The notes beneath the pieces are model-generated. The model did not search any database. It was given only the letters and a program-made list of their open reading frames with translations, and was not told where the DNA came from. From the NCBI GenBank assembly GCA_030390025.1, contig CM059453.1, forward strand, positions 7,688,001 to 7,752,000: DNA of 64,000 nucleotides. The letters run 5' to 3'. This DNA comes from Squalus acanthias. Taxonomy: Eukaryota. Made by a program: the position numbers and the translations under genes. Shown here in pieces: positions 4,129 through 61,055 of this stretch; within the stretch, counting starts at the first letter, position 1, and each line of letters starts with the position of its first letter.

Positions 4129-4134
4129 TTTATT
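4129..4134 (-). terminator. Candidate polyadenylation signal AATAAA of gene A
   Basis: AATAAA on the minus strand about 270 nt after the stop codon, followed by a U-rich tract. Confidence 0.45.
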
Positions 4135-4405: not shown

Positions 4406-4573
4406 TCAATTGCATTTAATTGCGGCGTATTCACACGACTCCTCGTTCTGGAGATATCGCTCCTGCTTTCGAACCTTTGAAACACTGACAGCTGCATACA
4501 GGACCTCTTCACTTTGAGCTGACTGGTTTGATGGAGCCCCTCTCACACCAGTTTTTCCATACTTTTCTTGTCT
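4406..4573 (-). CDS. Gene A exon 8, cytoplasmic tail with ITIM (VLYAAV) and terminal ITIM/ITSM-like motif (CEYAAI)
   Basis: tttacag phase-0 acceptor; RQEKYGKTGVRGAPSNQSAQSEEVLYAAVSVSKVRKQERYLQNEESCEYAAIKCN*. Confidence 0.88.
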   Translation of the reverse strand, partial: RQEKYGKTGVRGAPSNQSAQSEEVLYAAVSVSKVRKQERYLQNEESCEYAAIKCN

Positions 4574-5340: not shown

Positions 5341-5967
5341 GCCAATGATTGCAGTCGGGTTCGGGTGGGAGTCGGGGCTGGATATTGAATTAAGACCCCG
5401 GATTTAAAATTTGTCCGGTCTTGGTCATGCCAGCCTATTGCTCACACAGGCCCCTCGCACGGAATGTTGCCGCCTCGCGGTAAAATAGAGCCTTAAAATC
5501 CAGGGAGGACAATGTTAATAATCCCAGCAAAATACCATGCTATTTGACCCTCTCAAACCCCTCATACTACGTGATCTTGTTGATTATTTAAACCACCGGT
5601 GGTAATGTGGTGTGAGAGAGGAGCGTAAACATTATTCTGTTTAATACATGTAGTGACACGGTCAATCGGTTTTCTCAGACACACTTTGAATTCAATAGAA
5701 ATCCACTACAGAGAAAATGCATGATGCATTTATCAGGACATGACCTTTTCTGTTAGTCGTGTGAGGTGCTCATTTTATCCCTTATAAACTCCGTCAAACA
5801 GGTGTCCAGAACACGTGTTGACCCGTTGAACTGCACGGTTAATGTGTCTCACTCTGGTTACAAACAGTGCCAATATCAGGCAGGGGTAACTCCTTCGGAT
5901 GCTGGGCCGTTGTCATGCCCTCACTTATCTCGGTGTTAAACGGGGTCTACGCCACAAATTAACTCAC

Positions 5968-9032: not shown

Positions 9033-9117
9033 CTGTGCACCATCACCACGATCAGGATCAAAAGGATAACTGCCGCGGCTGCCAGTACTGAGATGAGAAT
9101 TTCCCAGGGAAATGTTT
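9033..9117 (-). CDS. Gene A exon 6, transmembrane (ETFPWEILISVLAAAAVILLILIVVMVHR)
   Basis: ttttag acceptor, CAG|GTATGT donor, 85 nt phase 1-2, uncharged hydrophobic span; paralog at 60971-61055. Confidence 0.88.
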
Positions 9118-13174: not shown

Positions 13175-13462
13175 CTTCAGTTTTGAGCTGGTATTTTCCG
13201 ACAGTAACGCCATGCTCGTTTACTCCAAAACATGAGATCAGTTGTCCAGTTCCAGTTGGGTGAGTCAGTGTCAGGGAGCTCTGCTCCAGGTAGATATTCA
13301 ACTGCGAGGAGAGGATATTGATATCTGAACTGTTCGCAGTGATGTTTCTCCCATTGATGCCCCAGGTGATGTTTGCTGGGGGGTTGGCTCTCACACTGCA
13401 GGTACAATGAATCCAACTCTCAGCACTGGTGCAGGTCGGGCCTGATACTATTGTCGGTTTAA
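13175..13462 (-). CDS. Gene A exon 5, membrane-proximal Ig domain c (canonical acceptor mutated)
   Basis: Open frame GPTC...CTCSVRANPPANITW...SSLTL...ISCFGVNEHG, donor G|GTATAT; acceptor AG>AT relative to the paralogs; in-frame cryptic TAG 15 nt downstream. Confidence 0.75.
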
Positions 13463-14326: not shown

Positions 14327-14584
14327 ATTGTACAGAAATCTTTGAGGAGCTGTTCGCTTTGCCCAAGTTATTATCAGCCACGCACCAATATTCACCGTTA
14401 TATTCAAAACTAATGTTGTGGAATATGTGCTTCAGTTCACCAGTGGAAGACTTGCTGATCTCCTCACCATTTCGGACCAAGGTTAAGTTGCTCGCTATGG
14501 TCCCCCTGGCCGTGCAGTATAATAATAAAGAGCTCCCTTCCACTGCTGCTATAGAGGAATTGATGGCTGGTTTCTGTGGGCCAT
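14327..14584 (-). CDS. Gene A exon 4, Ig domain b (non-canonical GC donor)
   Basis: tccag acceptor, 258 nt, EGSSLLLYC...GEYWCVADNNLG; donor is T|GCAAGT where the gene C paralog has T|GTAAGT. Confidence 0.85.
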
Positions 14585-15914: not shown

Positions 15915-16226
15915 TTTTAACATCCAGTGTAAGAGTTTCTTCATCAGTAGCTGTGACACCGTCGACTATAAGTTTACATCCCAGCTTCTTCCCATGATGG
16001 TCCAGTGATGGGCTGAAGTTGAAAGTGGATGAAACCTTCTGGGAATCGTCGAAACTGTTATCATATCCTTTTGAAGTTTTAATCGCTGGCAGAAATGCAG
16101 GTACAACATTGTCATGGGTCCACATCAATTCAAGGTTGGCGGACGGGCAACTGTGGGTGACTGAGCAGGTCAGGTGTGCTGGCTTTCCGGCAATCAATTC
16201 CCCAGAGACTGATATCCGTGGTTTAT
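15915..16226 (-). CDS. Gene A exon 3, C2-set Ig domain a
   Basis: tacag acceptor, A|GTAAGT donor, 312 nt; LTCSVTHSCP...W...F.PS.DHHGKKLGC is typical of Siglec domain 2, including the extra Cys for the V-C2 disulfide. Confidence 0.92.
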
Positions 16227-17398: not shown

Positions 17399-17779
17399 CT
17401 AAAATAGAAAGAGTGACCTTAGATTCGGTAGAATATCCTTCTCTCTTATTCTGGGCATTGATGATCTCCAATTTGAAATAATAAACACCTTCATCGATCT
17501 TCCTGATGTCCTTCAACTTTAAGGAACATTGTTTCTTTTCAAAGTCGCCGGTGAACTGAGCTCGCCCTCTGTAGTTCAAGGACACGTTGTCTGAATTCCG
17601 TGAATCACAGATAATCGACACCCCTGAGGTACCAGGTTTAGGACCCCCCTTTAACCACATACCCTGTGGACTGCGGCCATAGGCGGGATAATCAAATGTA
17701 CACGGGATCTCTGCACATGACCCGTTTACCGCCGACACCTTCCACGGCACCTTCACAGACCATCGTGAACTATGGACAA
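17399..17779 (-). CDS. Gene A exon 2, Siglec-type V-set Ig domain
   Basis: ccag acceptor, G|GTAGG donor, 381 nt phase 1-1; GSCAEIPCTFDYP...W...GRAQFTGD...CSLKL...D.GVYYFK has the Siglec Cys pattern (two N-terminal Cys, E-strand CSL, no F-strand Cys). Confidence 0.92.
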
Positions 17780-18175: not shown

Positions 18176-18218
18176 CTTCGCTAAATATCAGAAGGGAGAT
18201 CAATCTAATACTCTTCAT
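18176..18218 (-). CDS. Siglec-like gene A exon 1, leader peptide (MKSIRLISLLIFSE)
   Basis: ATG at 18218, hydrophobic 14 codons, phase-1 donor GAAG|GTAAAA; homologous 43-nt exon at 51069-51111. Confidence 0.85.
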
Positions 18219-29879: not shown

Positions 29880-30046
29880 GATTTAAGCTTAATCGCGGTC
29901 TATACACTGGACTCCTCATTCTGGAGATATCCTTCATGTTTGTGAAGACTTCAAATATTCACCGATTGCGAGCAGAACCTCTACACTCTGCGATGATTAC
30001 TGGATGTAGATCATCTGATAGCAATATTTCGATACTGGTCTTGGCT
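29880..30046 (-). pseudogene. Gene B decayed ITIM exon
   Basis: Alignable to gene A exon 8 (CTC CAG AAT GAG GAG TCC...), with a TGA after 11 codons, frameshifts, and both Tyr motifs destroyed (distal Tyr codon is TAG). Confidence 0.75.
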
Positions 30047-30489
30047 CTGTAACAGAAAGGAGTGGATAAGAGAGGGAGCAAGAGATACGGGTATGAGGGC
30101 GCTTCCTCGATCAGAATAACCCTCTTTCTCGCTTCTCTGATCATTTTTCATTGTTCTCACTCAGGGAGGGACTCATTCTGAGCTTTGGAACATACAGTCG
30201 TCTGAAAAGACGAACAGGAAATAATCGACTGGTCAATGAGCCTATCCAAAACAGTCAAGACGCAACAATGCACCATGACGACAGTATTCCCTCTCACCAC
30301 ATTGCAACCTCTCGCGGGAGGCAAACATATGTAAACAGCACTCGGCCAATTCAGAAATCTGTAAAATTCTTCTCCGACCCCGAAGATGAACAAAACGAGT
30401 TCCAAGGGGATAACAGTGTCCATGAGGTAGATCACCCAACATCCCACCTAAGATTTGTATACACTGATATTAGCCAAAGGAAGGAATTT

Positions 30490-30948
30490 GTCCTTAGGAC
30501 TTATGAAGAAGGGTTGAGCAGGTTGGGCCTATACTCACTGGAGTTTAGAAGCATGAGAGGTGATCTTATTGAAACATATAAGATACTGAGGGGGCTCGAG
30601 AAGGTCGATGCAGAGAGGATGTCTCCCCTCGTGGGGAAATCTAGAACACGGGGGCATATTTTCAGAATAAAGGATCGCCCTTTTAGAACTGAGATGAGGA
30701 GGAATTTCTTCTCTCAGAGGGTCGTAAATCTGTGGAATTCTCTGCCCCAGAGAGCTGCGGAGGCTGGGTCATTAAATACATTGAAGGTGGAGATAGACAG
30801 ATTTTTGCAAGATAAGGGAGTGAAGGGTTATGGGGAGCGGGCAGGGAAGTGGCTTTGAGCCCGAGATCATTCATGATCTTATTGAATGGCGGAGCAGGCT
30901 CGAGGGGCCTAGTGGCCTATTCCTGCTCCTGTTTCTTATGTTCTTATA
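30490..30948 (+). mobile_element. CR1 3' end
   Basis: YEE.LSRLGLYSLEFR.MRGDLIETYKIL...WNSLPQ; makes up the 3' half of ORF 30151-30858. Confidence 0.9.
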
Positions 30949-31954
30949 TTGGTCCAGTTTCTTTTTGAATTGTTGCAGCGAATTCGCACTCATCACACGA
31001 GCCGGTAACTTATTAAAAGTGTCGATGAGCCCCTGGGTAAAGAATAACCATCAGATATCTAAAATAGTTTTAGGTATTCATCTGGCGAATTATCAGGACA
31101 GCAACACTTTGTACCCAATGCATTACAATGTACGTGCTCCAGTAAACCTGCTTCCAACAAGCGACTGCAGACTGCAAATGAGATAATTGGCCAAGCAGTC
31201 ACAATTTGCTGGCTTTGGAGGAGTTCAAACCACCACGTGTGTTGCAATCCCTATTCTTCTTCAGTAGTGCGTGAAGTTTCTAACATCCAACTGAACCATT
31301 AGAACAGGCAGCCTGGGCCTGAGATTAAGATGTGTGGAGGAGTCTGTCCTCTCCTTCTCACAGTGCATGGCATTGAGAACATCGAGTTGAAGCCAGAGCC
31401 TCGGTATATCGGAAAGTCTGCAGCTCCGACAATGCAGCACGCCCGGAGTACGACACCGGAGTCACACGCGAGCTGAAAGGCTCAAATCGTGACGTGAGGT
31501 TGCAAACCACAACCTTCAGCCTCAGAGAGAGCGCGCTAGCAAATCAGCCAAACTGACACCAAGATACATGGAGGAAGGTGCAAAAATGCTGGAGAAATGC
31601 GATGTGATTTGGCCCTGCTTTGGCCTCACACTATGTGTTTAGAATTTTAACCGCAAGAGATAATATAGTCGGGGAGTATTCATTAGTGTGGTTAACGTGT
31701 ATAATGACATTTAAAGGTGTTATTTAGACCGGCTCATTTCAAAAGAAGTCCAAACCAGAGAAAATGTTCATGATGCCATTTACCCGATCATTTCACACAA
31801 TGGCCACTGCAACATTTCCCTGTTCATGAAGTGAGGAGGCCATTCCACCCTTTAAGAACACCCTCAAACCAGTTCCTATAACATCTGTTTAACTTTGGAT
31901 GTGCCTGTAATGTGATCCCAGACAATGGTCTAAACTCTCCATCTCCTCACTTAC

Positions 31955-32040
31955 CTCAGTTCAGTGGGTTCTCCAACACACAGTATTTCGCTGCACCCTA
32001 GTCTGTAGGAGAGACCCCAACAGGGACATTTACCTTCTTC
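31955..32040 (-). pseudogene. Gene B juxtamembrane exon with early stop (RKKVNVPVGVSPTD*)
   Basis: tgtttcag acceptor, TAG at 31998-32000, GAG|GTAAGT donor. Confidence 0.65.
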
Positions 32041-32828
32041 CTGAAACAGAAAATACAAATGATTCACGTCTCCTAATTACAGATAATTCGCTTCAGTACA
32101 CCGCCCAGTGTCCCTGTGTTGAACAACAGGGTTCGCACTATAGTAACTTGTTCTTGTTACTGTTTCCTGATTGGCTGCGACCAGATTTAATTCCCGTTTC
32201 TTTTCTATCTCTACACTTTCCTAATTCCAAAGCAAGCATTCTCTCTATCTGATGAAGCTGGTTATATCTATCTTGATCTGCTTTGACAAATTCAGTGTTC
32301 ACTGAACATTTTAAGAGAGCGGCCTCTACTGGTGCACAATAACCATTGCAATTTCCGCCAAGTCTTAAAATTGCACCGGAATTTGACTTTTAGTCTGCAG
32401 CAATGGTTCTGTGGAGCATTTTATGACCTCCTGATTCATGAAGTCCTCCGCCAATATGGCCACGGGAGCTTTGAGCTGCCAAACCGTGCTCAGCTTAAAT
32501 TGTCTGTTATGAAATACGGCGCCTCCGCTCAAGTGACAGGCTAGATTTTGCACCCATGTTCTGGACTGGCCCTTGATGTACAATCTTTGAACTAAGAAGT
32601 GAAAGACCAGACATGGGACGCTGAACTACTGACATTCCCCTGCTTACCCCTCACAAGACACCTGAACTCCAGCAAGCATTCCCTTGTCAACTCTTAGCTG
32701 AGATTCAGGGTCAATGATATCTGGGGTTAATTACATTAAGCAATATTTGCTCATGGGCTGAATTCTGATGTCACGTCCTTTTGAAATCTGTCTTATTAAA
32801 GCACGAGTATAAGTAATATGAACCATAC

Positions 32829-32928
32829 CTGTGTGAATCAATCTCTATCGTCACCAAGACAATGATGCCAATCAGAATGAGAACTGCGACGGCGGCTCTG
32901 ATTGGCATGACAAATCTCCAAAATGATC
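32829..32928 (-). pseudogene. Gene B TM exon (GSFWRFVMPIRAAVAVLILIGIIVLVTIEIDSHR)
   Basis: ttttag acceptor, CAG|GTATGG donor, 100 nt phase 1-2; flanking intron homologous to gene A's TM exon flanks; Arg codon at 32897-32899. Confidence 0.8.
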
Positions 32929-33029
32929 CTAAAATATAAAAAAAAATCCGTGCTCGTCATTATTGCACTAAGATTATACCAAGATTCAAGACAGCATTTA
33001 ACAGCATGTAGGGGAAGCTGTTAAGAACA

Positions 33030-33270
33030 AAATGAACTTATTTTTATATAGCGCTTTTGCCGACGTCTCAAAGCGCTATACAGCCAATGAAGTACTTTTG
33101 AAGTGTAGTCACTGTTGTAATGTAGGGAACGTGGCCGCAAAATTGCGCACAGCAAGCTCCCACAAACAGCCATAAGGTAAATCAGCAGATAAATCTGTTT
33201 CTGTGTTATTGGTTGAGGGATAAATATTGGTCAGGGCACCAGAGGGAACTCCCCTGCTCTTCTTCAAAAG
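33030..33270 (-). mobile_element. Deu-type SINE 3' fragment
   Basis: Reverse complement of the SINE tail. Confidence 0.65.
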
Positions 33271-33907
33271 ATTAAATATCGCAGTCTCCCTGAGAGACTG
33301 CATCAATCCACGCCGCATACTCGGATCTGCTCGCTTGCTATCCGAGATGTTGCTTCAGTCTATAACCTGCTCTTTCAGTTATCGAAGTTATCCTGGCTCA
33401 ATTGTCAGTGTTATCGCACTGTATAGTTCTTTCAGAATATCTTCAGTACAACAAAACCGGCAGTAGGCTGAAATATCCGTGAAAAAATGTTGAACTGATC
33501 GACTGTACCCCACTACCGTTACAATGAGAGGAAACATGATTTCATCGAGTGTGTCACTAAGTCAGAAGGTTCTGTTTTATTAAAGACCACACGCTGCTTC
33601 TAGTGTTTTATATTACCCCTCCTATCTTTACAAAAACTAGGCGAAAATAATCAAATTTAAAAAATAGACTCTAAACTTTACCTGAATTATTTCCATCGTA
33701 ACTTTCAGTGAGGTAGCGTTCAGTCATGAACCAGTCCCAAACACTACTGAAATTAAAATTGGATTCTATCCTACTTTGCAGATAAGAATAATATTTCAGC
33801 TCAGTGGAACTGGTACTTGCTGACACTAACACCGTTCAGTTAATCACTTACAGGTGATGGACCGAACCGTTCGCAGTAATTAAATTACAGGAAAATGCAA
33901 TATATAC

Positions 33908-34195
33908 CCCCAGATTGTAGCTGGTACTTTCCGACAGTAACGCCATGCTCATTTACTCCAAAACATGAGATCAGGTGCCCAGTTCCAGTTGGGTGATTCA
34001 GTGTCAGGGAGCTCTGCACCAGGTGCCTATTCAACTCCGAGCAGAGGATATTGAGAACTGAACTGTTCGCAGTGATGTTTCTCCCATTGATGCCCCAGGT
34101 GATGTTTGCTGGTGGGTTGGCTCTGATACTGCATGTACAATGAATCCCACTCTCAGAACTGGTGCAGGTCGGGCCTGATACTATTGTGGGTTCAT
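33908..34195 (-). pseudogene. Gene B C2c exon (open frame, intact splice sites)
   Basis: tttttag acceptor, G|GTATAT donor, 288 nt, EPTIVSGPTC...ISCFGVNEHG. Confidence 0.85.
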
Positions 34196-34659
34196 CTAAA
34201 AAAAGAGAAGTAAAATTGAGATAGTTTCCATTCAGTAGCTTGCAGTGTCTAAATAGAACCAATTTCGGCGTTTCGATTAAACAGAGAGTTCACTGCGCAT
34301 AACGAGTTTCGTTAGAATCAGTTAATTTTACATTCATGTAATGCTTCATCAGACTTTACTTTCCCCTAATTTCGAGCAAGGCAATAAATCAGGTATAACA
34401 TTGCATGAAGCCAATTTGCAATCAATTGATCCATATATTTCCTGGAGCAACATGTGTGATGAGGGTGTTGTCCTATGATGAGAGATTGAGTAGATTGGGC
34501 CTAAACTCTCTGGAGCTTAGAAGAATGAGAGATGATGTCATTGAAACATATAAGGTTCTAAGGGGGATTGACAGGGTAAATGCTGAGAGGCTGTTTCCCC
34601 CGACTGGAGAGTCTAGAACTAGGGGGCATAGACTCAGGATAAGGGGTCGGCTATTTAGA

Positions 34660-37348
34660 ACAGCGGCAGCGGCGAGAATCCGATTCAAAAACAACAAAAA
34701 AAGCAGAGTGATGTCACAGGAAAGCAGGTAGGTGATTGGTTGGTGAGTATTACAGCTCTTTTAGGCTCTATAAGTTAGGGAAGGGGTTAAATTAAGAGCC
34801 GAGAAACTGTAACTTCCAATACTTATTAAATTGAAAACTTAAATTAGATAAAATAATCAAAAATAAAATATCGTTTGAATAAAAGCTTTAACTAATTAAT
34901 TAATAAATGACACAAGGTTAGAGATGACAGGGCAGGTGGTGTGTCGTACCTGCAGCATGCGGGAGACTGCGGAGAGCATCGCGATCCCGAGCAACCACAT
35001 CTGCAGTAAGAGTTTGCGACTCGAGGAACTTCGGCTCAGAATTGTTGAGCTGGAGTACGAGCTGCAGACATTGCGATGCATCAGGGAGGGGGAGAGTTAC
35101 CTAGACACATTGTTCCAGGAGGCAGTAAAACCCTTTATGTTAAGTTGTACTTTAGAGTTCGTCAGTGGTCAGGGACAGGAGTGTGTGCCCGCGATTCAGG
35201 AAGGTATGGGGAGCCAGGATATACTGATGGAGGAGCATTAGCCCTGGATCTTGTCCAACAGGTACGAGGTACTTGCTACCTGTATGAATGAGGAAAAGGA
35301 CTGCAAGGAGAATGAGCAAACTGACCACGGCATTGTGGTACAGGGGGCCATTCAAGTAGGGGGAGAAGGAAGGAATGTGGTAGTAGTAGGGGACAGTATA
35401 TTCAGGGGTGTAGATACTATTCTCTGCAGCTGCGAAAGAGAGTCCCGAACGCTCTGTTGCCTGCCCGGTACCAGGGTTAAGGATATCTCCTCATGGCTGG
35501 AGAAGAATTTGGAGCGGTAGGGGTTGGATCCATTTGTCATGGTCCATGTAGAAATCAACTACCTAGGTAGAACCAGGAATGATGTTCTGCTGAGGGAGTT
35601 AGAGGAGCTATGATATAAATTAATAAGCAGAACAACAAGGATAATAATCTGTGGAATACTAACTGAGCCACGCGCAAATTGGCATAGGGTCAAGCAGATC
35701 AGAGAGTTAAATGCGTGTTTCAAAGTGTGTGTGGGAAGAAGTGTTTTCAATTCATGGGGCAGTGGCGTCTGTAGATAGGTTTTTAACCAAAAAAAATGGG
35801 GGAGTGTTCAGTTTCGGGGGAATTTAGAAATCTAAAAAGAAAAGTGCAGGGAATAGAGCAGTGTAGCGATTTGGGTAAAAATAAGAGGATTGTGACAGGT
35901 AGGGGCGGAAAGTTTAATGGTGGCAGTGCAGCAGAGAATAAGGTGAAAACAGGGATTAATGGTAAAAAAATAAAGCCTCTTTATCTGAAAGCACGAAGCA
36001 TTCGTAACAAGATAGACGAACAAGTGGGACAGATAGAATTAAATGGGTTTGATGTAATAGCCTGTACAGAGACGTGGTAGCACGGTGAACAAGGTTGGGA
36101 ACTAAATGTTCCAGACACTTGACATTTCAAAAAGACAGGCGAAATGGAAAAGGAGGGGGAGTAGCGCTGATAATAAAGAATAACATAAGGAAAGTAGAGA
36201 AAAAGAATCTCGGCTCGGAAGATCAGGAAGTAGAATCAGTATTGGTGGAGATTGTGAATAACAAGGGGCAGAAAACTGGTGGGACTAGTATATAGGCATC
36301 CTAAAGTAGCTATACCGTTGGACAGAATATTGATCAAGAAGTAGTAGGAGCTTGTTACAAAGGTAATACAATAATCGTGGGAGACTTTAGTTTTCATATA
36401 AATCTGGAGGACGAGTTCATTGAATGCATTCGGGACAGTTTCCTTGAACAATGTGTCATCGAACCAACCGTGAATCAGGCTATTTTCGATCTTGTACTCT
36501 GTAATGAGACAGGATTAATGAATAATCTCATAGTAAAGGATTCTCTGGGGCAGAGTGAGTCAACATAATATGATATAATTTCAAATTAAGTTTGAGAGTG
36601 ACTTACCTAGGTCTGAAACTAGAATCTTAATCTTAAATAAATCCAATTACATAGGTATGAGGGGCGAGTTCGCTAAGGTAGATTGTAAAAATAGATTAAA
36701 ATGTATGGTGGTAGATAAGCAGTGGCTAGCATTTAAAGAAATATTTCATAATTCTCACCAAAAATACATTCCATTGAGAAACAACAATTCTACGGGAAAA
36801 CTGATCCAACCCTGGCTACTTAAAAAATTAAGGATAGCATTAGATTGTAAGAAGAAGGTTATAACGTTGCAAATAATAGCAGTAAGCGTGAGGATTGGGA
36901 CAGTTCCAGGAACCAGCAAAGGACGACCAAAAATTGATGAGAAGGTATAAAATAGAATGAGAGAAAACTAGCAAGAAATATAAAAGCAGATTTTAAGAGT
37001 TTAGACAAGTATGCAAAAAGGAAGAGAAGAAGCAAAAGTCAATGTTGGTTCCTGAGAGGCTGAGACAAGATACATTCTTATGGGAAATAAGGAAATGGCA
37101 GAAACGTTAAACAAATATTCTGTATCTGTCTCCACAGTACAAGACACAAAAAGCATACCACAAATGGTGGGGAACCAAGGGTCTAATGAGGGTGAGGTAC
37201 TAAACGTAATTAATATAATTAGAGAAAAAGTGCAGGAGAAAGTAATGGGACGAAAAATCGACATATCCTCTGGAACAGACGGCCTACATCCTAGGGTTCT
37301 AAAAGAGGTGGCTGAAGAGATAGTTGATGCATTGGTTTTGATCTTTCC
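34660..37348 (+). mobile_element. CR1 LINE 5' portion: 5'UTR, ORF1 (zinc finger + SGNH esterase), ORF2 APE endonuclease; RT deleted
   Basis: CxxC...HIC, VVVVGDSIFRG...CCLPGTRVKDI; ARSIRNK, IACTETW, GKGGGVAL, GDF, DLVLCNE, SGTDGLHPRVLKE; multiple stops. Confidence 0.9.
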
Positions 37349-38458
37349 CAGAACCATGGAGTAATATTGGTCACTACAGGGATGTGGTTTATATGAAATA
37401 TAATTGCAAAGGCTTCCAACACCTGATTTTTGTTCAGCCACAGAGTAATTGGAACATACAGGCCAAGGGGAGTCCATTCATGGTCTGAGCTAACTCACAT
37501 ATATACATAGGACATACGGCAGAGAAACAGGTCATTGGGCCCAACCAGTCCATGCCGGCGTTTATGCTCCAGCAGAGCCTCCTCCCGTCTTTCGTCATCT
37601 AAATCTATTAGCCTAACCCGCTATTAACTTCTCCCTCATATGCTTGTCCACCCTCCCCTTAAATGCATCTCCACTATTCGCTTCAACCACTCCCTGTGGT
37701 AGCGAGTTCCACATTCTCATCACTCTCTGGGTAAAGAAGTTTCTTCTGAATTCCCTGTTGGATTTGTGGTGACTATCTTATATTGATGGTCTCTAGTTAT
37801 CTTCTTCCCCACAAGTGGAAACATTCTCTCTGTATCCGCTCTATGAATGCCTTTCATAATTTTAATGAGCTCTATTAGGTCACCCCTCAGCCTTCTTTTT
37901 TCAGGAGAGAAGATAACCAGCCTGTTCATCCTTTCCTGATATATATACCCCCGCATTTCTGGCATCATCCTTGCAATTCTTCTCTACATCCTCTCCAGTG
38001 CCTCTATATCCTTTTTATAATATGGCGGACAGAATTGCACGCAGTACTCTAAGTGTGGTCTAACCGAGGTTCGATACAGATTTAGCAGAACTTCCCTGCT
38101 ATTTAATTCTATCCTTCTCGGAATAAACCCTAGTGCTTGGTTTGCTTTTTTATGGTCTTGCTAAACTGTGGCGCAATTTAGCTGGGGCGGTGGTCGGGAT
38201 TCTACAATTGGCCTCAGCTCCACTGTGTAAGAGATGGGAAAGTCCAACCTACTTATTCTTGGAGGAATGGCCACTTGGTTGATGTACCAGAGTAATAGAA
38301 CCTTACACGGGATGTACCGGAGGAATAGAACCTAACACGAGAAAACATGCAACTCTTCAAATCCTTGAAGAGATGAATGTTTATTTTTGGAATAAGCTTA
38401 ACATCTAGTGCGTAAAAGTCATGAGCTGCATATTGAATTTATAGTTTAAAAGAAAACC

Positions 38459-38762
38459 ACCAGTGTAAGAGTTTCTTCATCAGTAGCTGTGACACCGTCG
38501 ACTATAAGTTTACATCCCAACATCTTCCGATGATGGTCCAGTGATGGGTTGAAGTTGAAAGTGGATGAAACCTTCTGGGAACCCTCGAAACTGTTATCAT
38601 GTTCTTTTGAAGTTTTAATCTCTGGCACAAATGCAGGGATAACATTGTCATGGTTCCTCATCAATTCAAGTTTGGCGGACGGGCAACTGTGTGTGACTGA
38701 GCCGATCAGGTGTGCTGACTTTCCTGCAATCAATTCCCCAGAGACTGATATCCGTGGTTTAT
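38459..38762 (-). pseudogene. Gene B C2a exon, truncated at the inversion breakpoint
   Basis: HLIGSVTHSCP (Cys lost), ELMRNH (Trp lost); the 3' end and donor are replaced by inverted intron sequence. Confidence 0.85.
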
Positions 38763-39009
38763 CTGTAAGGAGAGAAGGACATTCGCGTTACCGTAGATTT
38801 TAATTTAAAAAATGGCGAATGGCGTGCAAGTTGATTCAGCCCAAAGACTTTGAAACATGACCCTAAGAGATGGGGGCCTGTAAATGATCTGATTGAAAAA
38901 AACCATCCTAAGTATTGACAATGTCCTCTGACCTGTCCATTAGAAGTACAAATCTTGATTTATTTTTCCACATCCTTCAGGGATTGGATTTTGACACACC
39001 GGTCTATTC

Positions 39010-39700
39010 TTTTATTGATTATGGAATGTGAGCGTCGCAGACAAGGCCAGCATTTATTGTCCATCCCTAATTGCCCAAGAGAAGGTGGTGGTGAGCCAAC
39101 TTCTTGAACCGCTGCAGTCTCCCACAGTGCAATTAGGGAGGGAGGTCCATGATTTTGACCCAGCGACAATGAAATTTCGGCGATATATTTCCAAGTGAGG
39201 ATGGTGTGTGACTTGGAGGGGAACTTGGAGATGGTGGTGTTCCCATGCGCCTGCTGCCCTTGTCCTTCTAGGTGGTAGAGGTCGCTGGTTTTGGAGGTGC
39301 TGCCGAAGAAGCCTTGGCGAGTTGCTGCAGTGCATCTTGTAGATGGTAAACACTGCAGCCACGGTGCGCCGGTGGTGGAGGGAGTGAATGTTTAATGTGG
39401 TAGATGGGCTGCCAATCAGGCGGGCTGCTTTGTCCTGGATGGTGTCGAGCATCTTGATTGTTGTTGGAGCTACACTCATCCAGGCAAGTGGAGAGTATTC
39501 CAGCACACTCCTGACTTGTGCCTTGTTGATGGTGAAAAGGCTTTGAGGAGTCTGGAGGTGAGACACCCGCCACAGAATACCCAGCCTCTGACCTGCTCTT
39601 TTTGCCACAGTATTTATGTGGCTGGTCCAGTTAAGTTTCTGGTCAATATTGAACGCCAGGATGTTGATGGTGGGGGATTCGGCGATGGCAATGCCATCTA
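39010..39700 (-). mobile_element. Crack/CR1-like LINE RT 3' end, paralogous to 16480-17150
   Basis: ORF 39054-39704. Confidence 0.8.
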
Positions 39701-39943
39701 GCATTGCACTTACTGAATGATCAACAGAGGGAGATTCTGCAAAGTTACTATGAAGGCCAGCGCCCCATTTCAGTTCAAGTCAAAATATAACACTCACCTG
39801 GGTATTACACAATGGACCAGTCCTGCCGCTGTAGCCTGTGGCATGGGGCAAGTGCAACACGAAATCTTTCCATTTTATGCTCAAATTAAATGGCACTGCC
39901 GAGATGGAATATAAACTACATAAGGAACAGATCAAAAACCTAC

Positions 39944-40324
39944 CTCAAAAAAGAAAGAGTGACCTTAGATTCGGTAGAATATCCTTCTATTTTATTGTTG
40001 GCATTGAAGATCTTCAATTTAAAATAATAAACACCTCCATCGATCTTCCTGATGTCCTTTAACTTTAAGGAACATCGTTTATTTTCAAAGTCGCCGGTGA
40101 ACTGAGCGCGCCCTCCATAGTTCAAGGGCACATTGTCTGAATTCCGGGAATCACATAAAATCGACACCCCTGAGGTACCAGTTTTAAGACCCCCCTTTAA
40201 CCACATACCCAGTGGGCTGCGGCCATAGGCGGGATAATCAAATGTACACGGGATCTCTGCACATGACCCGTTCACCGCCGACACCTTCCACGGCACCTTC
40301 ACAACCATCGTGAACTTGGGACAA
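39944..40324 (-). pseudogene. Gene B V-set exon (frameshifted)
   Basis: Nearly identical to gene A's V exon; a 1-nt deletion gives TGG TTG TGA (stop at 40299-40301); 1 extra nt before the donor. Confidence 0.85.
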
Positions 40325-40693
40325 CTGGTGAAAAAACAGAAATTAAACACCCATTGAAGTCCGCGATAATATCGCAATTAAAACATACCCTGACCGTCAA
40401 GTTAAATACCATTAATTTAACCTTTAAACACCCACCAACATATTATTTGGTACATCAATTAAACTCGTGACATTTTCAAAAAAACTCTTCAGATTCCATT
40501 GAAAGCCGATAAATAATAGAGTAAATATTAAAACAATTTTATAAAATACAAGATCAAGTTTCGAATGAAATATACATTAATTGCGCTAATCGGGAATTTG
40601 CAAATTAGCAACTAAACATGTACTATCTCCACAAATATGAATTGTTTTATTTTCCACAAAATGGAAATCGCGTCGGACATTAATTATTAAAAC

Positions 40694-40726
40694 TATCAGA
40701 ATGGAGATAAATCTAATACTCTTCAT
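40694..40726 (-). pseudogene. Gene B leader exon remnant
   Basis: ATG AAG AGT ATT AGA TTT ATC TCC ATT CTG ATA, then a deletion of about 20 nt that removes the AGCGAAG|GTAAAA donor. Confidence 0.8.
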
Positions 40727-51068: not shown

Positions 51069-51111
51069 ATGAAGAGTATTACATTGATCTCCATTCTGAT
51101 ATTTAGCGAAG
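51069..51111 (+). CDS. Siglec-like gene C exon 1, leader (MKSITLISILIFSE)
   Basis: ATG at 51069, GAAG|GTAAAA donor, 43 nt. Confidence 0.85.
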
Positions 51112-51505
51112 GTAAAATATTTATTTTAATAATTAATGTCAGAAGCGCTATCCATTCTGTGGCAAATTAATACGTTTATTGTTTGTGGAGATAGTACATG
51201 TTTAGTTGATAATGTGCAAATTCCCGATTTGTGCATTTAATGTATATTTCATTCGAAAAATTATCTTATATTTTATTAGATTGATTTAATATTTACTCTC
51301 TGATTTATCGACTTTCAATGGAATACTTAATGGAATATGAAGAGTTTTAATGAAACTTTCTCGAGTTTTAATGGATGTACTAATGAATATGTTAGTGGAT
51401 GTTTAAAGGTTAAATGAATAGTATTCAACTTGACGGTCAGGGTATGTTTTAATTGCGATATTATTGCGGATTTCAATGGGTGTTTAATTTCTGTTTTTTC
51501 ACCAG

Positions 51506-51886
51506 TTGTCCATAGTTCACGATGGTCTGTGAAGGTGCCGTGGAAGGTGTCGGCGGTGAGCGGGTCATGTGCTGAGATCCCGTGTACATTTGATTATCCC
51601 GCCTCTGGCCGCAATCCAGGGTGTATGTGGTTAAAGGGGGGTCCTAACCCTGGTACCTCAGGGGTCTCGATTGTCTATGATTCCAGTGATGCAAACAATA
51701 AAGACTATAACGATAGAGGACGAATTGAATTCACCGGCGATTTTCTAAAGAAACAATGTTCCTTACAGATTAATGTCACCAGGAAGAGCGATGCAGGTGA
51801 CTATTACTTCAGAGTGAAGATCACCACCGCCCGGAATATAACAGATCAATACGTTTCCAAATCTCCTGTCTCTCTTTCTATTTTAG
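51506..51886 (+). CDS. Gene C exon 2, Siglec V-set domain with essential Arg (GDYYFRV)
   Basis: ccag acceptor, G|GTAAGT donor, 381 nt open frame. Confidence 0.9.
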
Positions 51887-52691
51887 GTAAGTGTTTTTAT
51901 TTGCTCCTGTTGTATTTTATATTCCATCTCCTCAGTGCCATTGAACTTACGACTAACATACCAATATCCCGAGTAACTGTTGACCCATGTCAAAGGATAC
52001 AGCGGCAGGACTGCTCCGCTGCCTATAACCCAGGTGTGTGCTATGTTTTGACTTGAACTGTAATAGGGCGCAGGCCTTCTTAATAACTTACAGAAGCTCC
52101 CTGGCAAGGCAAGAATAATTATTTATCATAAGAATATAATAAACTGCAGGTGGAGGAAATATACAGGTCGATGTGAAATCCTTTGCAAAGAAGGCAGGTG
52201 GACCCATTGTGAAAATAGACTGCTTGATGTGGTGCCGAAGCGTTACGCCAACAGTGTCCCAGATTCTATCCCATGTCTGTGCTTGGGATAGAATCTAGGA
52301 CACGCTTAGTCTAATGACTCAGTGTCAGATCAAACAATTAATTTACCCAAAGCGGCATGGGCGGGTAGAATTGTTGCTGATATTTGAAAGTTTCATTTTG
52401 CATTTTGAGCAATGCAGTGAGTGCGTGCTCAATAAATCACCTGACAATAATGTGAATAATTCACGTGAGAAAGCGACTGACTATTAATTGAACGAGTACA
52501 TAAATGCTCCGATTGATTCTTTAACTCTAAGAACTTTTGGCATATTTCGATGCACCATAGCGCGGGAGGAAAACAGTAGAATTAATTCTTAAGGGGATAC
52601 TTTCTCAGACTTTGGGCTGAATCACCTTGCATACCATTGGCCATTTTAAAATTGAAATCTACTGTAACTCGAATGTCCTTCTCTCCTTATT

Positions 52692-53002
52692 ATAAACCAC
52701 GGATATCAGTCTCTGGGGAATTGATTGCTAGAAAACCAGCACACCTGACCTGCTCAGTCACCCACAGTTGCCCGTCCACCAAACTTGAACTGATGTGGAC
52801 TCATGACTAAGTTGTCCCTCCTTTTCTGCCAGAGAGTAAAACTTCAAAAGGAAATGGCGACAATGTCGAGGGTTCCAGAAGGTTTCATCCACTTTTAACT
52901 TCAGCCCATCACCGGACCATCATGGGAAGAAACTGGGATGTAAACCTATAGCCGACGGTGTCACAGCTACCGTTCAACCAACTCTTGCACCGGATGTTAA
53001 AT
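52692..53002 (+). pseudogene. Gene C C2a pseudo-exon
   Basis: Acceptor cag lost (ccttatt|ATAAACC), in-frame TAA at 52808-52810, 1-nt deletion near 52876; donor T|GTAAGT intact. Confidence 0.85.
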
Positions 53003-54303
53003 GTAAGTACCTGCTCTAAGCTTCATTCAACCAAATTGTTGATAAACCGGTTCAATAGATGTCTTTATATTGAATATAGTGATAGCGCACCTGGATAAAC
53101 AAGTAATCGAAGCTTCATGGAAGGCACATTATTTGACATTTACCCCAGACCCATGGAGTAATATTGGTCGCTCCAGGGTTTATCTGAAATTTTATTGCAA
53201 AGGCTCCCAATGTTTGATGTCGTTTCAGCCACAGAGTAACTGAAACATACAGGCCAGGGAGAGTCCATTCATGGTCTGAGCTAACTCACATACATACATA
53301 GGACATACGGCAGATAAACAGATCATTGGGCCCAACCAGTCCATGCTGGCGTTTATGCTCCACTCGAGCCAACTCCCATCGGTCCTCATCAAAATCTATC
53401 AGCGTAACCCTCTATTCCCTTCTCCCTCATATGCTTATCCAGCCTCCCATTAAATGCATCTTTACTATTCGCATCAACCACTCCCTGTGGTAGCGATTTC
53501 CACATTCTCGCCACACTCTGGGTAAAGAGGTTTCTTCTGAATTCCCAATTGGATTTCTTGGTTACCATCTTATATTGATAACCTCCAGTTATGCTCTTCC
53601 CCACAAGTGGGAACATTCTCTCTGCATCGACTCTATCAAAGCCTGCCACAATTTTAAAGCCCACTATTTGGTCACCATTCAGCCTTCTTTTTTCAAGAGA
53701 AAAGAGACCCAGCCTGTTCATCCTTTCCTGATATGTATACCCTCGCATTTCTGGTATCATCCTTGTAAATCTCTGCACCCTCTCCAGTGCCTCTATATCC
53801 TTTTTAAAATATGGTGACCAGAACTGTATGCAGTACTCCAAGTGTGGCCTAACCAATGTTCGATACAGGTTTAGCATAACCTCCATACCTTTCAATTCTA
53901 TCCCTCTCGAAATAAACTCTAGTGCTTGTTTTTTTTTATGGCCTTGCTAACCTGTGGCACAATTTAGCTGGGGCGGTAGTCTGGATTCTATAATTGGCCT
54001 CAGCACCCCTGTGTAAGACATGGGAAAGTCCACCGTACTTAATCTGGTAGGAATTGCCACTAGGTTGATGTACCGGTGGAATAGAACGTTATGCGGGCAA
54101 ACATATAACTCTTCAAATCGTTGAAGAGAAGAGGAGAAGGAATGCGTATGTTTGACATCAGCGTAAGATCGAGGGCATAAAAATCATGAAATAGATTTTG
54201 AATTTATAGATTGCAAGATAGCCATCATATCTTACTTCAATATTCTTCTTTAGTTGTCACATATATTGTTTTATATTCCTCATCCGCACTGATAACTACA
54301 TTT

Positions 54304-55535
54304 CATAACATAAGAATATAAAAAGTAGGAGCAGGGGTAGGCCATACGGCCCCTCGAGCCTGCTCTGACATTCAATAACATCTTGGCTGATCATCGACCT
54401 CAACTCCACTTTCTCACCCGATCTCCATATCCCTTGATTCACCTCAGCCTTGAAACTCAGCATTCACAGCAGTCTAGAGCAGAGAATTCCAAAGATTCAC
54501 AACCCTCTGAGTGAAGAATTCCAGCTCATCTTCAACTTATATGGCCTACCCCTTATCCTGAGACTATGCCCCCTAATTCTAGGCAATCCAGCCAGGGGAA
54601 ACAACCTCTCAGCATCTACCCTGTCAATCCCCTTCAGATCTTGCATGTTTCAATGAGATCACCTCGCATTCTTCTAAACGCCAGAGATTATAGGCCCATT
54701 CTACATAACCTATCATCATAGGACAGCCCTCTCATCCCAGGAATCAATCTAGTGAACCTTCGTTGCACCGCCTTCAAGGCAAGTATATCCTTCCTTATTT
54801 AAGGAGACGAAAACTGTGCACAGTACTCCAGGTGTGGTCTCACCAAGGCCCTGTACAATTGTACGAAGACTTACTTATTCTTATACTCCAATGCCCTTGC
54901 AATAAAATCCAACGTGCCATTTGCCTTCATTATTGTTTGCTGTACCTGCATGTTAGCTTTCTGTGTTTCTTGCACGAGGCCACCAAAATCTCTCTGAACA
55001 CCAACATTTGAAATTTTCTTACCACTTAAAAAATATTCTGCTTTTCTATTCTTCCTAGCAAAGGAAATAACCTCACATTTCCCTACATTATACTCCATCT
55101 GCCACCTTACTGCCCACTCACTTAGTCTATCTATATCTGTTTGCAGACTCTTTGTGTTCTCCTCACAGCTTACTGTCCCAACTAGCTTTGTATCATCAGC
55201 AAACTTGGACACATTACACTCGGACCCTTCATCTTGGTCATTAATATAGATTGTAAATAGCTGAGGCCCCAACACTGATCCTTGTGGCACCACACTAGTT
55301 ACAGCCTGCCAACCTGAAAAAGATCCGTTTATCCCTACTCTCTGTTTTCTGTTCGTTTACCACTCCTCTATGCATGCTATTATATTACACCCAATCCCGT
55401 GAGCCCTAATCTTGTGTAATAAACTTTTATGTGGCACCTTATCGAATGCCTTTTGGAAATCCAAATATACTACATCCAATGCTTCCCCTTATCTATCCTG
55501 CTAGTTACATCCTCAAAAAACTCGAATAAATTTGT
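54304..55535 (-). mobile_element. CR1 LINE RT and 3' end specific to gene C
   Basis: VPQGSVLGPQLFTIYIND, SKFADDTKL; empty site in gene A near 14612. Confidence 0.9.
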
Positions 55536-55566
55536 CATTCAGAACCAATGACCTCATCTCTTGCAG

Positions 55567-55824
55567 ATGCCCTACAAAAACCGTTCATCAATTCCTCTAT
55601 AGCGGCAGTGGAAGGGAGTTTGTTATGGTTATACTGCACGACCCGGGAGATCATACCGGGCAACTTAACGTTGGTCCGAAATGGTGAAGAGATCATCACG
55701 TCTTCCACAGGTGAACTGAAGCACATATTCCATAACATTAGTTCTGAAGATAACGGTGAATATTGGTGCGTGGCTGACAATAACTTGGACAAAGCGAGCA
55801 GCTCCACACAGATTTCTGTACAAT
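55567..55824 (+). CDS. Gene C Ig domain b exon
   Basis: ttgcag acceptor, T|GTAAGT donor, 258 nt open frame, GEYWCVADNNL. Confidence 0.85.
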
Positions 55825-57002
55825 GTAAGTGCTGTGTCAACCTATCAAATGTATATTGGGACATTAATCCGTTTTACAGTGATTAGGCATCGGTGTTGTT
55901 TTCCCCCAGTGTTCACATAACTGTCTCAAAATCTGTCAGTTAGATTGTCAGGATAGTCAGTAAAAGAAGGAGAGTTGAACCCAATTCTTGGAGTAAACGA
56001 CACTGTTGAAAAAACAACTAGAGACCCCAATACACAACTCAAGTTGAATGTATCTCTGATTGGCTGAAACCAACTGAATGATTAATTGGGAATATTTTCT
56101 GCTCGGCGTACTGAACCCAGTGGCCAGGAAGTATCAGAACATTTTAGTCCATCACAAAGGTAGAAATCTATAACATTAACTAAAGACACAAACTGAGCAG
56201 AAGTTATTGAGGTGTTCGCCAGAAATGACATGTTGGAGGAGTTAGTCGGGTTTATTTCTAAGATTGTATCTCGGGAGGCCTCACAACATAAGAACATAAG
56301 AATTAGCATCAGGAGTTGGCAATTCGGCTCCACGAGTCTGCTCCGCCATTCAATAAGATCATGGTTGATTTTCGACCTCATCTCCACTTTCCTGCACTAT
56401 CCCCATATCGCCAGATTACCCTCGAGTCCAAAAATCTATCAGTCTCACCTTTAAAATACTCAACGATTCAGCATCCACAGCCATCTGAGGTAGAGAATTC
56501 CAAAGATTCACAACCCTCTGATTGAAGAAGTTCCTCATCATCTCAGTCTTAAATGGCAGTCCACTTATCCTGAGACTGTGCCCCTTGGTTCTAGACTCCC
56601 CAGCCAGGATAAGCATACTCTCAGCATCTAACCTGTCAATCCCCCTCAGAATAACTTGTTTCAATGCGATCACCTCTCATTCTTCTAATACTCCAGCTCG
56701 TATAGGCTCATTCTACTCAATCTCTCCTCAAAGGACAACCGTCTCATCCCACATGTTGTTCCAGGAAATATAGCGATCAATTGACTGCTTGACGCAATTT
56801 TAAACCTGATTTATTGCCTTGCCAGAAACTAGGGGAAAATAAAGTCTGATGAAGCCTTAAATGAATTTAACATTTAATGGTTCTGATCGAGCTCGTTATG
56901 CGCAGTGACCTCTCTTCTTAATCTAAACGCCGAAATTGGTTCTACTTTGGTGCTGCAAACTGCTCGATGGAAGCTATCTCAATTTGACTTCACTTTTTTT
57001 AG

Positions 57003-57290
57003 ATAAACCCAAAATAGTATCAGGCCCGACCTGCAACAGCTCTGAGAGTGGGATTCATTGTAACTGCAGTGTCGGAGCCAACCCCCCAGCAAACATCACC
57101 TGGGGCATCAATGGAATAAACATCACCGCGAACAGTTCAGATATCCAAATCTTCTCCTTGGAGTTGAATAGTCACCTGGTGCAGAGCTCCCTGATACTGA
57201 CTCACCCAAATGGAACTGGACACCGGATCTCATGCTTTGGAGTAAACGAGCATGGCGTTACTGTCGGCAAATACCAGCTCCAATCTGGAG
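57003..57290 (+). CDS. Gene C Ig domain c exon
   Basis: tttttttag acceptor, GAG|GTAAAT donor, 288 nt open frame. Confidence 0.87.
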
Positions 57291-59105
57291 GTAAATACTA
57301 AATTTTCCTGTAATATAAGTACTGCGAACGGTTTGATCCATCACCTGTCATTGACTAACTGAACGGTGTTAATGTGAGCAAATAACAGTTCCATTCGACT
57401 GCTGCATGCCAAATCCAAGTACTTTAAGTCTGATCCATTGGACATTTTAAGCAGTGTATGGTCTGGCCAAAACCTCATTGAATGTTGCGTTGGGAATATT
57501 GAATGCATTTGAAATCTGTCTCTCATTTCCGGGTGTGTTTCTTGTCGCCTTGTTTTTCTCACGATTGTAAGGGATTAATATATAACATTAGAAGTAGCGC
57601 GCAATCGTTAATACAACAGAACCTTCTGAATCAATTAAACTCTTTGTGAATTCAGGTATCCTCTCACTCTAACGGAAGCCGGCAGCAATCTATCATTTCA
57701 TTGAACTTTGCACAGTTTTAGTTTCAATTTCTGATGTAGGATACACTTGTCTTAGAGGCGGTTTATTAGATTGATTCCTGAGATGAGAGGGCTGTCCTAT
57801 GAGGAGAGATTGAGTAGATTGGCCCGACACTCTCTGAAGATTAGAAGAATGAGAGGTGATTTCTTTGAAACATATAAGGTTCTGAGGGGATTGACAAGTT
57901 AGATGCTGAGAGGTTGTTTCCCCTGGCTTGAGAGTACAGAACTAGCGTGCATAGTCTCAGATATGCCGTGAGCCACTTAAGACTGAGATGAGGAGCAATT
58001 TCTTCACTCAGAAGGTTGTGAATCTTTGGAATTCTCTACCCCAGACGGTTGTGGATGCTGAGTCGTTGATTATATTCAAGGCTGAGATCGATAGATTTTT
58101 GTACTACAGAGGAATTAAGGGATACGGGGATCGGGCCGGAAAGTGGAGCTGAGATCGAAAGTCAGCCATGATCTTATTGAATGGCGGAACAGGTTGGAGG
58201 GGCCGTAGCACCGATTCCTGCTCCTAATTCATATGTTCTTTTGTTCTCATGAACTTGCTAGTTTTGAATATTTAGTCCAATGTGTCCAGCTCGCTCAATA
58301 AAACACATTTTGGAGCTAGTTCAGATGGCCCCTGGATGGTTGTCATGGAGATATTATGAGAAGATACCATGAGATAATCCTGAAAATTGAGCGAGAATAT
58401 TTGGGATAATTGAAAGAGCAGGAACTAGATTGATTTGAAGTATTGGATAGCAGGCGAACAGAACCGATTGTGCAGCGAGGATATAGGCAGGCTGCCGGGG
58501 TTATACCTGGAAACATATATTTAGTCAAATCATTAATCACATGTTTTCAAGGTTGATGGCCCCATGTAATTCAAACATCGTATGGTATGAAGAGTAGTCG
58601 CGAGTCCCTTAAGGCCCAATTTTGCAAAACAACTCAGTTAGAATCATAGAGATTTACGGCACAGAAGGAAACCATTCGGCCAATCGTGTCTGTGGCAGCC
58701 GAAAAAGAGCTATCCAGCCCAATCCCACTTTCCAGTTCTTGCTCCGTAGCTTTGTAGGTTACGGTGCATCAAGTGCATATCCAAGTACTTTTTAAATGCA
58801 ATTAGGGTTTTTGCCAATATCACTCTTTCAGGCAGTGAGTTCCATTCCCCCAGAACCCTCTGGGTGAAATAGGTTCCACTCAAATCCCCTCTAATCCTTC
58901 CACCAATTACTTTAAATCTGTGCCCCCTGGATATTGACCTCTCACCTAAGGGAAATAGATCATTCCTATCCACTCTTTCTACGATTCACATAATTTTATA
59001 CACGAAAAATTTGCATTAAATGAATCAACATGTGTTAACTATTCTGAGATGTGTACCGAGTATTGTTTATTTACATTTTCTTATTTTGATTTCTTATGAA
59101 CTTGA

Positions 59106-60575: not shown

Positions 60576-60970
60576 ATGAATATGACTCTATATAGGACAG
60601 CAATCGTAATACAATTATTTCAAATTTACACAGGGGTCAAAACCATTGCTGAAATTCAGTGTCAGTCTGTGGAAGGAGAAATCAGTTCAAATGATGCCCT
60701 CTCTGTGTTCAGTGCACATTTCACAAAAAATCTATACAATAAAATAAGGATTTGTAGGGAGATTAGATTTGGGGTCATTTCCAAGTCGTCCATCTTCTGA
60801 TTGCCGGGTCAGAGTCTTGTCTGTTTAGGAATGGATAAAAATACTGAACTCTTACGTTTAAGATGAGAATTTCTAGTAAACTTGCCTGCACAAGCTGACA
60901 AAAGTTATCCTAAAAGAAGGATGTAATCTTAGAGCAATAATAAACAGCAAAGTTTTTTTGAATATTTTAG

Positions 60971-61055
60971 CAACATTTCCCTGGGAAATTGTCATCCCAG
61001 TACTAGCAGCCGCCGGAGTTATACTGCTGATCCTGATCCTGGTGATGGTGCACAG
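60971..61055 (+). CDS. Gene C TM exon (ATFPWEIVIPVLAAAGVILLILILVMVHR); cytoplasmic exons expected beyond the window end
   Basis: ttttag acceptor, CAG|GTATGT donor, 85 nt; near-identical to gene A's TM exon. Confidence 0.87.

Follow-up and report, generated by a model that had tools for sequence, protein, structure and literature searches.

A Siglec-type terminal exon and a putative splice-donor shift at the first ITIM of a Squalus acanthias gene

Introduction

The described systems closest to the locus reported here are the mammalian CD33-related Siglecs (Siglec-3, -5 to -11 and -XII), which combine an ectodomain of V-set and C2-set domains with an ITIM and a distal tyrosine motif, are encoded by clustered, fast-evolving paralogs and have repeatedly lost an essential V-set arginine (PMC6288428). 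All of these features recur in the shark genes described below, as does the tyrosine spacing of Siglec-9, in which Y433 and Y456 lie 23 residues apart (PMC10906256). The V-set arginine is critical for sialic-acid binding and is listed as a feature of the CD33-related family (PMC9659267). The consensus of the membrane-proximal ITIM is given as (I/V/L/S)xYxx(L/V) (PMC7226832, PMC10906256), and the phosphorylated tail tyrosines of Siglec-6, -3 and -9 recruit SHP-1/SHP-2 and inhibit (PMC9659267, PMC10906256). Siglec-XII, which is without the essential arginine, still recruits SHP1/2 (PMC11343606). In the primate pairs SIGLEC11/SIGLEC16(P) and SIGLEC5/SIGLEC14, near-identical ectodomains are joined to divergent transmembrane and tail regions, and the activating members have a basic transmembrane residue and frequent null alleles (PMC6288428, PMC5701461).

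Fish genomes are reported to be without inhibitory CD33-related Siglecs in a fish Siglec paper in which sharks are not mentioned; the same paper describes fish MAG (Siglec-4) in blood cells and with an ITIM (PMC7226832). Siglecs are mentioned once in a whale shark paper, as a gnathostome-enriched family (PMC8455134). Our literature search, whose scope took in few subscription papers, found no study of the shark Siglec family treated here. Comparative papers by Cao et al. from 2009 and by Bornhofft et al. from 2018 reportedly discuss lower-vertebrate Siglecs and may cover it.

Here, we analyzed a window of S. acanthias DNA, that is, the whole stretch of 64,000 nt, which contains three Siglec paralogs termed genes A, B, and C.

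Results

The terminal coding exon of gene A and the features belonging to it are as follows.

4406..4573, minus strand: terminal coding exon, 55 codons and TGA, phase 0, 68–69% identical to named Heptranchias and Heterodontus proteins
4487..4504, minus strand: ITIM VLYAAV by translation, the second tyrosine motif of the shark family, with tyrosine in 17/20 relatives' tails
4415..4435, minus strand (CEYAAI at 4435-4418): distal ITIM-like/ITSM-like motif CEYAAIK by translation, with tyrosine in 14/20 relatives' tails
4129..4134, minus strand: candidate polyadenylation signal AATAAA seen in the sequence, about 270 nt past the stop of the terminal exon

Translation of the minus strand from 4573 to 4406 gave a 55-residue peptide without an internal stop, followed by TGA, and reproduced exactly the exon coordinates and the two motif sequences claimed in the earlier note. 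The acceptor is canonical, with a pyrimidine tract and CAG (tttcgtttacag|AGA), and the distal tyrosine stands 23 residues past the ITIM tyrosine. VLYAAV fits the membrane-proximal ITIM consensus. In CEYAAIK, the residue at -1 is acidic and positions +3 and +4 are Ile and Lys, yet -2 is Cys and +2 is Ala, and the motif fails the strict ITSM TxYxx(V/I) given in PMC10906256. The order of ITIM and distal motif that had been likened to a TEYSEIK-type arrangement was thus found, but with Cys instead of Thr at -2 and Ala in place of Glu. The exon had also been described as missing from the ORF track. It is also absent from our own 85-aa ORF listing, as ORF finders pass over an exon with no in-frame ATG and only 55 codons, but this is no sign of novelty, because orthologous tails are already present in named, public shark proteins of RefSeq and UniRef. 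A match of the tail to the Pfam family GyrB-hook was sub-threshold (E value, 0.48) and was disregarded.

A chance control was performed with 30 shuffled windows, in which an acceptor-led short ORF containing an ITIM and a distal Yxx[IVL] was counted as a match. This pattern matched only one place in the window, the terminal exon, with two overlapping acceptors, while at least one match occurred in 6 of the 30 shuffled windows (mean, 0.27). The motif pair by itself is not rare, and a chance ORF is ruled out by the shark homologs and by the position of the exon behind a Siglec transmembrane exon rather than by the motif statistic.

The remaining exons of gene A, and the decayed piece adjoining its penultimate exon, are listed below.

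18176..18218, minus strand: leader exon, ATG at 18218, matching the N-termini of relatives
17399..17779, minus strand: Siglec-type V-set exon, with Lys at the essential Arg position (YYFKLE)
15915..16226, minus strand: Ig domain 2 exon, containing CxxxxxC as in Siglecs
14327..14584, minus strand: Ig domain 3 exon, with a GC donor (AAT|GCAAGT) where paralog C has GT
13175..13462, minus strand: Ig domain 4 exon, most similar in the PDB to MAG domain 5, with AT in place of the AG of the homologous acceptor
9033..9117, minus strand: transmembrane exon, 85 nt, phase 1 to 2, helix without a charged residue
5968..6016, minus strand: penultimate exon as now usable, 49 nt, phase 2 to 0, ending at the internal in-frame donor TCG|GTGAGT
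5929..5967, minus strand: decayed 39-nt rest of the ancestral 88-nt exon, with TAA as the first-ITIM Tyr codon, a second stop TAG, and the old donor ATAAGT

The eight minus-strand exons join in consistent phases into one open frame of 527 codons with the Siglec layout of a V-set domain, further C2-type Ig domains, a single transmembrane segment, and a cytoplasmic tail. The V exon scored above the cut-off for Pfam V-set and Ig_CD22, and 18 of its best 19 PDB matches were Siglecs, with sialoadhesin at the top (E value, 1e-13) and Siglec-10, Siglec-8, MAG, Siglec-5, and CD33 among the top matches. The Siglec cysteine pattern consists of a B-E intrasheet pair and an extra cysteine for the link between domains 1 and 2. 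In alignments, from which the bonds are predicted only, the cysteines of GSCAEIPC and KQCSL correspond to those of sialoadhesin, and CSVTHSC corresponds to CMVPDNC of MAG. By its predicted domains and cysteines, gene A is a Siglec-family gene. The essential arginine of the V-set F strand, by which Siglecs are also recognized, is Lys in genes A and B and Arg in gene C.

In the region 13175-14584, the intron between Ig domains 3 and 4 is non-canonical at both ends, and the acceptor change adjoins a T run, where an assembly error is possible. At the domain 4 acceptor, gene A has AT at 13463-13464, where paralogs B and C have AG, and an in-frame cryptic AG lies 15 nt inside the exon (start at 13447). 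As all Ig exons are in phase 1-1, exon skipping keeps the frame, and because the damaged sites flank one intron, skipping of domains 3 and 4 would give a V plus C2 receptor with the layout of CD33. The ectodomain of gene A probably consists of two Ig domains, with domains 3 and 4 skipped, or of four obtained through the GC donor and the cryptic acceptor.

Three protein searches returned 29 named relatives, all from sharks and rays; these counts leave out three unnamed matches of the tail search. The protein of gene A itself was not among the matches, of which the closest reached 66% identity with the V exon and 69% with the tail. Tail counts refer to the 20 of 29 proteins with a transmembrane segment and a tail of at least 40 residues, and the nine without the former or with a shorter tail were dropped. 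Three tyrosines recur in these tails: the first in 15/20 (including P0017, whose tyrosine stands outside the usual context), the second in 17/20, and the third in 14/20. The spacing of 23 residues was found in 12/12 relatives having both tyrosines, among 14 aligned tails. The essential-Arg column of 22 alignable relatives held Arg in eight, Ile in five, Thr in three, Ser in two, and Ala, Lys, Leu, and a gap in one each. This distribution suggests that usual sialic-acid binding has been given up in much of the shark and ray family. The closest V-set relatives of gene A keep the Arg where gene A has Lys.

RefSeq labels of the relatives are MAG-like or Siglec-5/13/14-like, and several Siglec paralogs occur per shark genome. 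Two RefSeq models named hemicentin-1-like, P0002 and P0016, each seem to merge a tandem pair of Siglec genes into one, and in the Heptranchias model P0003 the transmembrane exon is missing and the tail exons are read in another frame. Gene A was compared with annotated chondrichthyan proteins of Heptranchias perlo (P0002, P0003, P0012), Heterodontus francisci (P0009), Mustelus asterias (P0005), Scyliorhinus (P0007, P0008), and Chiloscyllium (P0004). Domain types, transmembrane segment, and the 23-residue spacing were the same, and the terminal exon was 59–69% identical. Gene A adds a member to a shark family that is already annotated, and its terminal exon is an ordinary one.

The main difference between gene A and these proteins lies in the penultimate exon. 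In the relatives, the residues NDS that end the 49-nt exon are followed by 13 further residues holding an ITIM of the VTYAVV type, and most chondrichthyan Siglec-like proteins keep this first ITIM, which gene A appears to have lost by a donor shift. The corresponding 39 bases of gene A translate as VS-stop-FVA-stop-TPFNTE and are followed by ATAAGT, the ancestral donor having changed from GT to AT at 5928, 39 nt beyond the internal donor. Where gene A has its first stop, paralog B carries a Tyr codon, and the ATAAGT of gene A corresponds to GTAAGT in paralog B. As reconstructed from these comparisons, the ancestral penultimate exon was 88 nt long and the 49-nt exon of gene A is its shortened form. 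Use of the 88-nt exon in gene A is ruled out by the two stops and the AT at the donor. Because the ancestral donor is dead in gene A, the internal TCG|GTGAGT is the only in-frame route to the terminal exon; it agrees with the consensus at 7/9 positions, including all six intronic ones. The earlier note had stated that the exon phases join cleanly and that the tail is a CD33-related-style double-tyrosine tail. The phases do agree, but the join depends on a donor at a place that is translated in the relatives. A Siglec-family terminal exon with a consensus ITIM and a distal motif at the Siglec-9 spacing was likewise confirmed, but the shark family has three motifs, of which gene A has lost the first. 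The layout with two tyrosines is thus a derived one.

Both stops of gene A lie in the dropped stretch of 39 bases, while the 1584 retained bases are free of stops, an arrangement with a probability of (39/1623)^2 = 6e-4 if stops were uniformly placed, calculated post hoc. At least 9/24 bases of the first eight dropped codons would have to change to match the closest relative, and for the kept segments the figures are 6/48 and 19/144 (0.12–0.13 per base). The dropped piece looks like sequence that has long been relaxed. In the proposed course of events, a new in-frame GTGAGT donor would have arisen 39 nt inside the penultimate exon, cutting out the first ITIM, and the excised piece would then have decayed as intron, gaining two stops and losing the old donor. 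The paralogs cannot date this shift, as the tail of B is decayed and that of C lies outside the window. The first motif has also been lost elsewhere, by a 7-residue gap in Chiloscyllium and Stegostoma and by Asp in Heptranchias P0002.

Self-comparison of the window placed the three paralogs within 60 kb. The features of B and C are as follows.

29880..40726 (ends approximate), minus strand: paralog B, a putative activating-type pseudogene, by self-comparison and exon models
32829..32928, minus strand: transmembrane exon of paralog B, 100 nt, encoding a helix that has an Arg close to its outer end (MPIRAAV); Mustelus P0006 and Cetorhinus P0018 have an exon of this type
31955..32040, minus strand: penultimate exon of paralog B, 86 nt, ancestral donor GTAAGT kept, with an early stop
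51069..61055, plus strand: paralog C from leader to transmembrane exon, an inverted copy of A, essential Arg kept, tail exons beyond the window end

Genes A and B are 93% identical in the V exon and 93.5% in domain 2, but identity falls to 71% in the transmembrane region and to 68% in that of the tail. A and C share 83% in the V exon and 91.5% in the transmembrane exon. Paralog B has lost its leader donor, has a 1-nt deletion in the V exon, a deleted domain-2 donor, and stops in the tail, and its tail motifs are decayed. It appears to have the layout of an activating twin, with an Arg-bearing transmembrane segment and no inhibitory tail, but it is dead in the window. FcR-gamma and DAP12 would both be suitable adaptors for a transmembrane Arg placed in this way. 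Exons of the B type were found in 2/29 relatives, Mustelus P0006 and Cetorhinus P0018, whose transmembrane exons score 94 and 86 against B and 41 and 40 against A; this 100-nt exon is a candidate activating Siglec module of sharks. In paralog C, the Ig2 exon has lost its acceptor and carries a 1-nt deletion, and in-frame skipping is possible; relatives without this domain exist (P0011, P0019). Paralog C, which keeps the Arg, may be the functional sialic-acid binder.

In a domain-4 tree of 27 rows, each Arg-TM protein stands beside inhibitory proteins from the same lineage, with support of 100/98 for the Mustelus pair and 100/99 for Cetorhinus with Carcharodon. The Mustelus and Cetorhinus Arg-TM proteins are not grouped together, and A, B, and C do not sort into a resolved order. 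In the V tree, A and B group with support of only 90/44. Grouping by lineage may reflect concerted evolution, as in the paired receptors SIGLEC11/16 and SIGLEC5/14.

Genes B and C stand head to head, with start codons about 10.3 kb apart, and an inverted duplication pairs 3748-29249 with 44434-64000 in blocks of 72–91% identity, with gene B between the arms. A 50-nt minisatellite occurs in both arms (23186-23471, 4.4 copies; 49072-49202, 2.6 copies). A unit of about 1.5 kb is present in about three tandem copies upstream of the gene A leader (18586-23040) and recurs upstream of B and C (near 41088-44157 and 49353-50702); its two long ORFs had no Pfam match, and it may represent a promoter that was duplicated or a repeat of unclassified type. 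The stretch 3417-3779, immediately downstream of gene A, holds 11 tandem copies of a 33-nt unit, presumably the repeat portion of a SINE-like element of sharks. LINE fragments, which we take to be of the CR1 type, lie at 59422-60276 on the plus strand and in many pieces of 300–1000 nt, and one of nine other long ORFs searched against Pfam matched (RVT_1; E value, 7e-12). A search of the window against Rfam gave 0 matches, and no flanking non-Siglec gene was recognized within it.

In gene A, 3/14 ancestral splice dinucleotides are altered, and lesions are present in each of the three copies within the window. The 1584 retained bases of gene A contain no stop or frameshift, unlike B and C, each of which has frameshifts; taken by itself, freedom from frameshifts does not reach significance (P0 = 0.13). 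Neither the changes specific to A (4 synonymous and 13 non-synonymous, pN/pS 1.02, with 1 and 8 in domain 4) nor the comparison of A with C (overall pN/pS 0.76, p = 0.07) gave a signal of purifying selection on gene A, and consequently this test could not decide between a gene and a pseudogene. When neutral decay was simulated for divergences of 3 and 5%, the frame stayed open in 4.3 and 0.7% of 1500 runs, respectively; the simulation assumes death at the A/C split and is powerless against recent death.

Discussion

Whether gene A can be ranked with the CD33-related Siglecs, as the earlier note proposed, depends on the feature considered. The window has the traits of a fast-evolving cluster, with three paralogs in 60 kb, an inverted duplication, and mosaic identity, and B has those of a paired-Siglec partner, with a similar ectodomain, a basic transmembrane residue, and no ITIM, although it is a pseudogene here. 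A and B in this respect resemble SIGLEC11/SIGLEC16(P) and SIGLEC5/SIGLEC14, including the null activating member; the difference is that B is broken in the window and the activating form rests on the gene models of two relatives. Unlike the mammalian CD33-related Siglecs, the shark family has a ground state of three tyrosines and a distal motif of the form xEYAAIK rather than TEYSE(V/I), and its sequence is no closer to them than to MAG. The Lys at the essential position lowers CD33-related kinship, but it does not exclude it, as accepted members such as Siglec-XII are without the Arg. By analogy, gene A would work like a CD33-related Siglec, but we do not class it as one.

MAG scores equal or higher than CD33-related Siglecs and has an ITIM in fish as well (PMC7226832), which limits the CD33-related style that had been proposed. 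The family profile gave 151.5 bits against three-domain constructs of MAG, 141.9 against Siglec-8, and 112.6 against CD22, and a single relative scored 97.8 for MAG and 62.9 for Siglec-8, though such scores favor the slow-evolving MAG. MAG is also the best PDB match overall, being so for domain 4 (which resembles MAG domain 5) and marginally for domain 2, and many relatives carry MAG-like labels. On these grounds the gene might encode a neural, glial adhesion molecule that binds axons, with tyrosines serving Fyn-type signaling or endocytosis. We regard this as highly improbable: a MAG ortholog would be a conserved single-copy gene with five Ig domains and the Arg, whereas the shark genes have four or fewer Ig domains, gene A with four Ig exons, and are multi-copy. 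Their fast divergence, variable domain number, frequent loss of the Arg, and activating-type twin are traits of immune paired receptors; the RefSeq labels are best-hit names, and fish MAG itself is found in blood cells (PMC7226832).

It is moderately probable, judging from the sequence, that the terminal exon ends a functional inhibitory receptor of an expanded shark Siglec family. The splice lesions leave room for another reading, in which gene A may be a young pseudogene, its terminal exon a real but silent relic, the GTGAGT donor incidental, and no receptor made. The GC donor at 14327, whose -1 base departs from the consensus, the loss of the AG at 13463-13464 and of the old donor at 5928, the two stops in the ancestral exon, the replacement of Arg by Lys, and an A-specific pN/pS of about 1 all point this way, and the damage to B and C shows that genes die fast in this cluster. 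Against this stand the intact 1584 retained bases, the confinement of both stops to the 39 dropped nucleotides next to a strong, in-frame replacement donor, and the phase 1-1 Ig exons, which let skipping rescue the frame in a family whose domain content varies; the Arg is also missing in 14/22 relatives. We consider death of the gene unlikely on balance, but not negligibly so. A lesser chance is given to expression mainly as a tyrosine-free or soluble decoy, through skipping of the weakened penultimate exon or retention of its intron, the terminal exon then being read in another frame or not at all. Skipping 6016-5968 would give the tail RDKKSMEKLV* and intron retention the ending DSVS*, both without tyrosines; read-through of the GC donor would terminate after domain 3, and in the Heptranchias model P0003, which has no TM exon, the tail is translated in the alternative frame. 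Such a product is improbable, as the phase-0 frame preserves the two tyrosine motifs at an unchanged distance and the new donor is strong.

With gene A taken as a working receptor, a signaling mechanism can be proposed by analogy. The receptor would cluster with an activating receptor, and Src-family kinases would phosphorylate both tyrosines, as for Siglec-3, -6, and -9. The tandem SH2 domains of SHP-1/SHP-2 would then bind pY-AAV and pY-AAI, 23 residues apart, and signaling would be damped, with the ITIM as the main site. Gene A likely encodes an inhibitory receptor that recruits SHP-1/SHP-2. Lys in place of the essential Arg also impairs sialic-acid binding. As gene A carries this Lys, its product probably binds sialic acid weakly or not at all, like Siglec-XII, in which case the trigger of the receptor would be another ligand.

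A wider reading, which we put forward tentatively and with rather more doubt than the functional assignment of gene A, is that sharks have their own system of the CD33-related type, composed of an expanded, rapidly evolving set of inhibitory Siglecs with an ancestral tail of three tyrosines and of paired activating members that gene conversion keeps similar and whose Arg-bearing TM exon is old, with gene A live. This system would either predate the split from bony vertebrates or have originated in parallel from a MAG-like ancestor. In the same tentative reading, gene A would have reached the mammalian two-tyrosine layout independently through the 39-nt donor move and would have left sialic-acid binding, like Siglec-XII.

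The terminal exon alone is of small import, as it completes a gene model with public orthologs. The donor shift that would have removed an ITIM and the activating-type twin are most worth following, and in gene A nature would provide a compact example of a receptor whose ITIM number is tuned by a splice-donor shift. If the wider reading is true, inhibitory and activating pairs, loss of the essential Arg, and null activating alleles, which have been described from primates, occur in cartilaginous fish too, and the shark family would provide a test of whether CD33-related Siglecs date from the first jawed vertebrates or arose twice.
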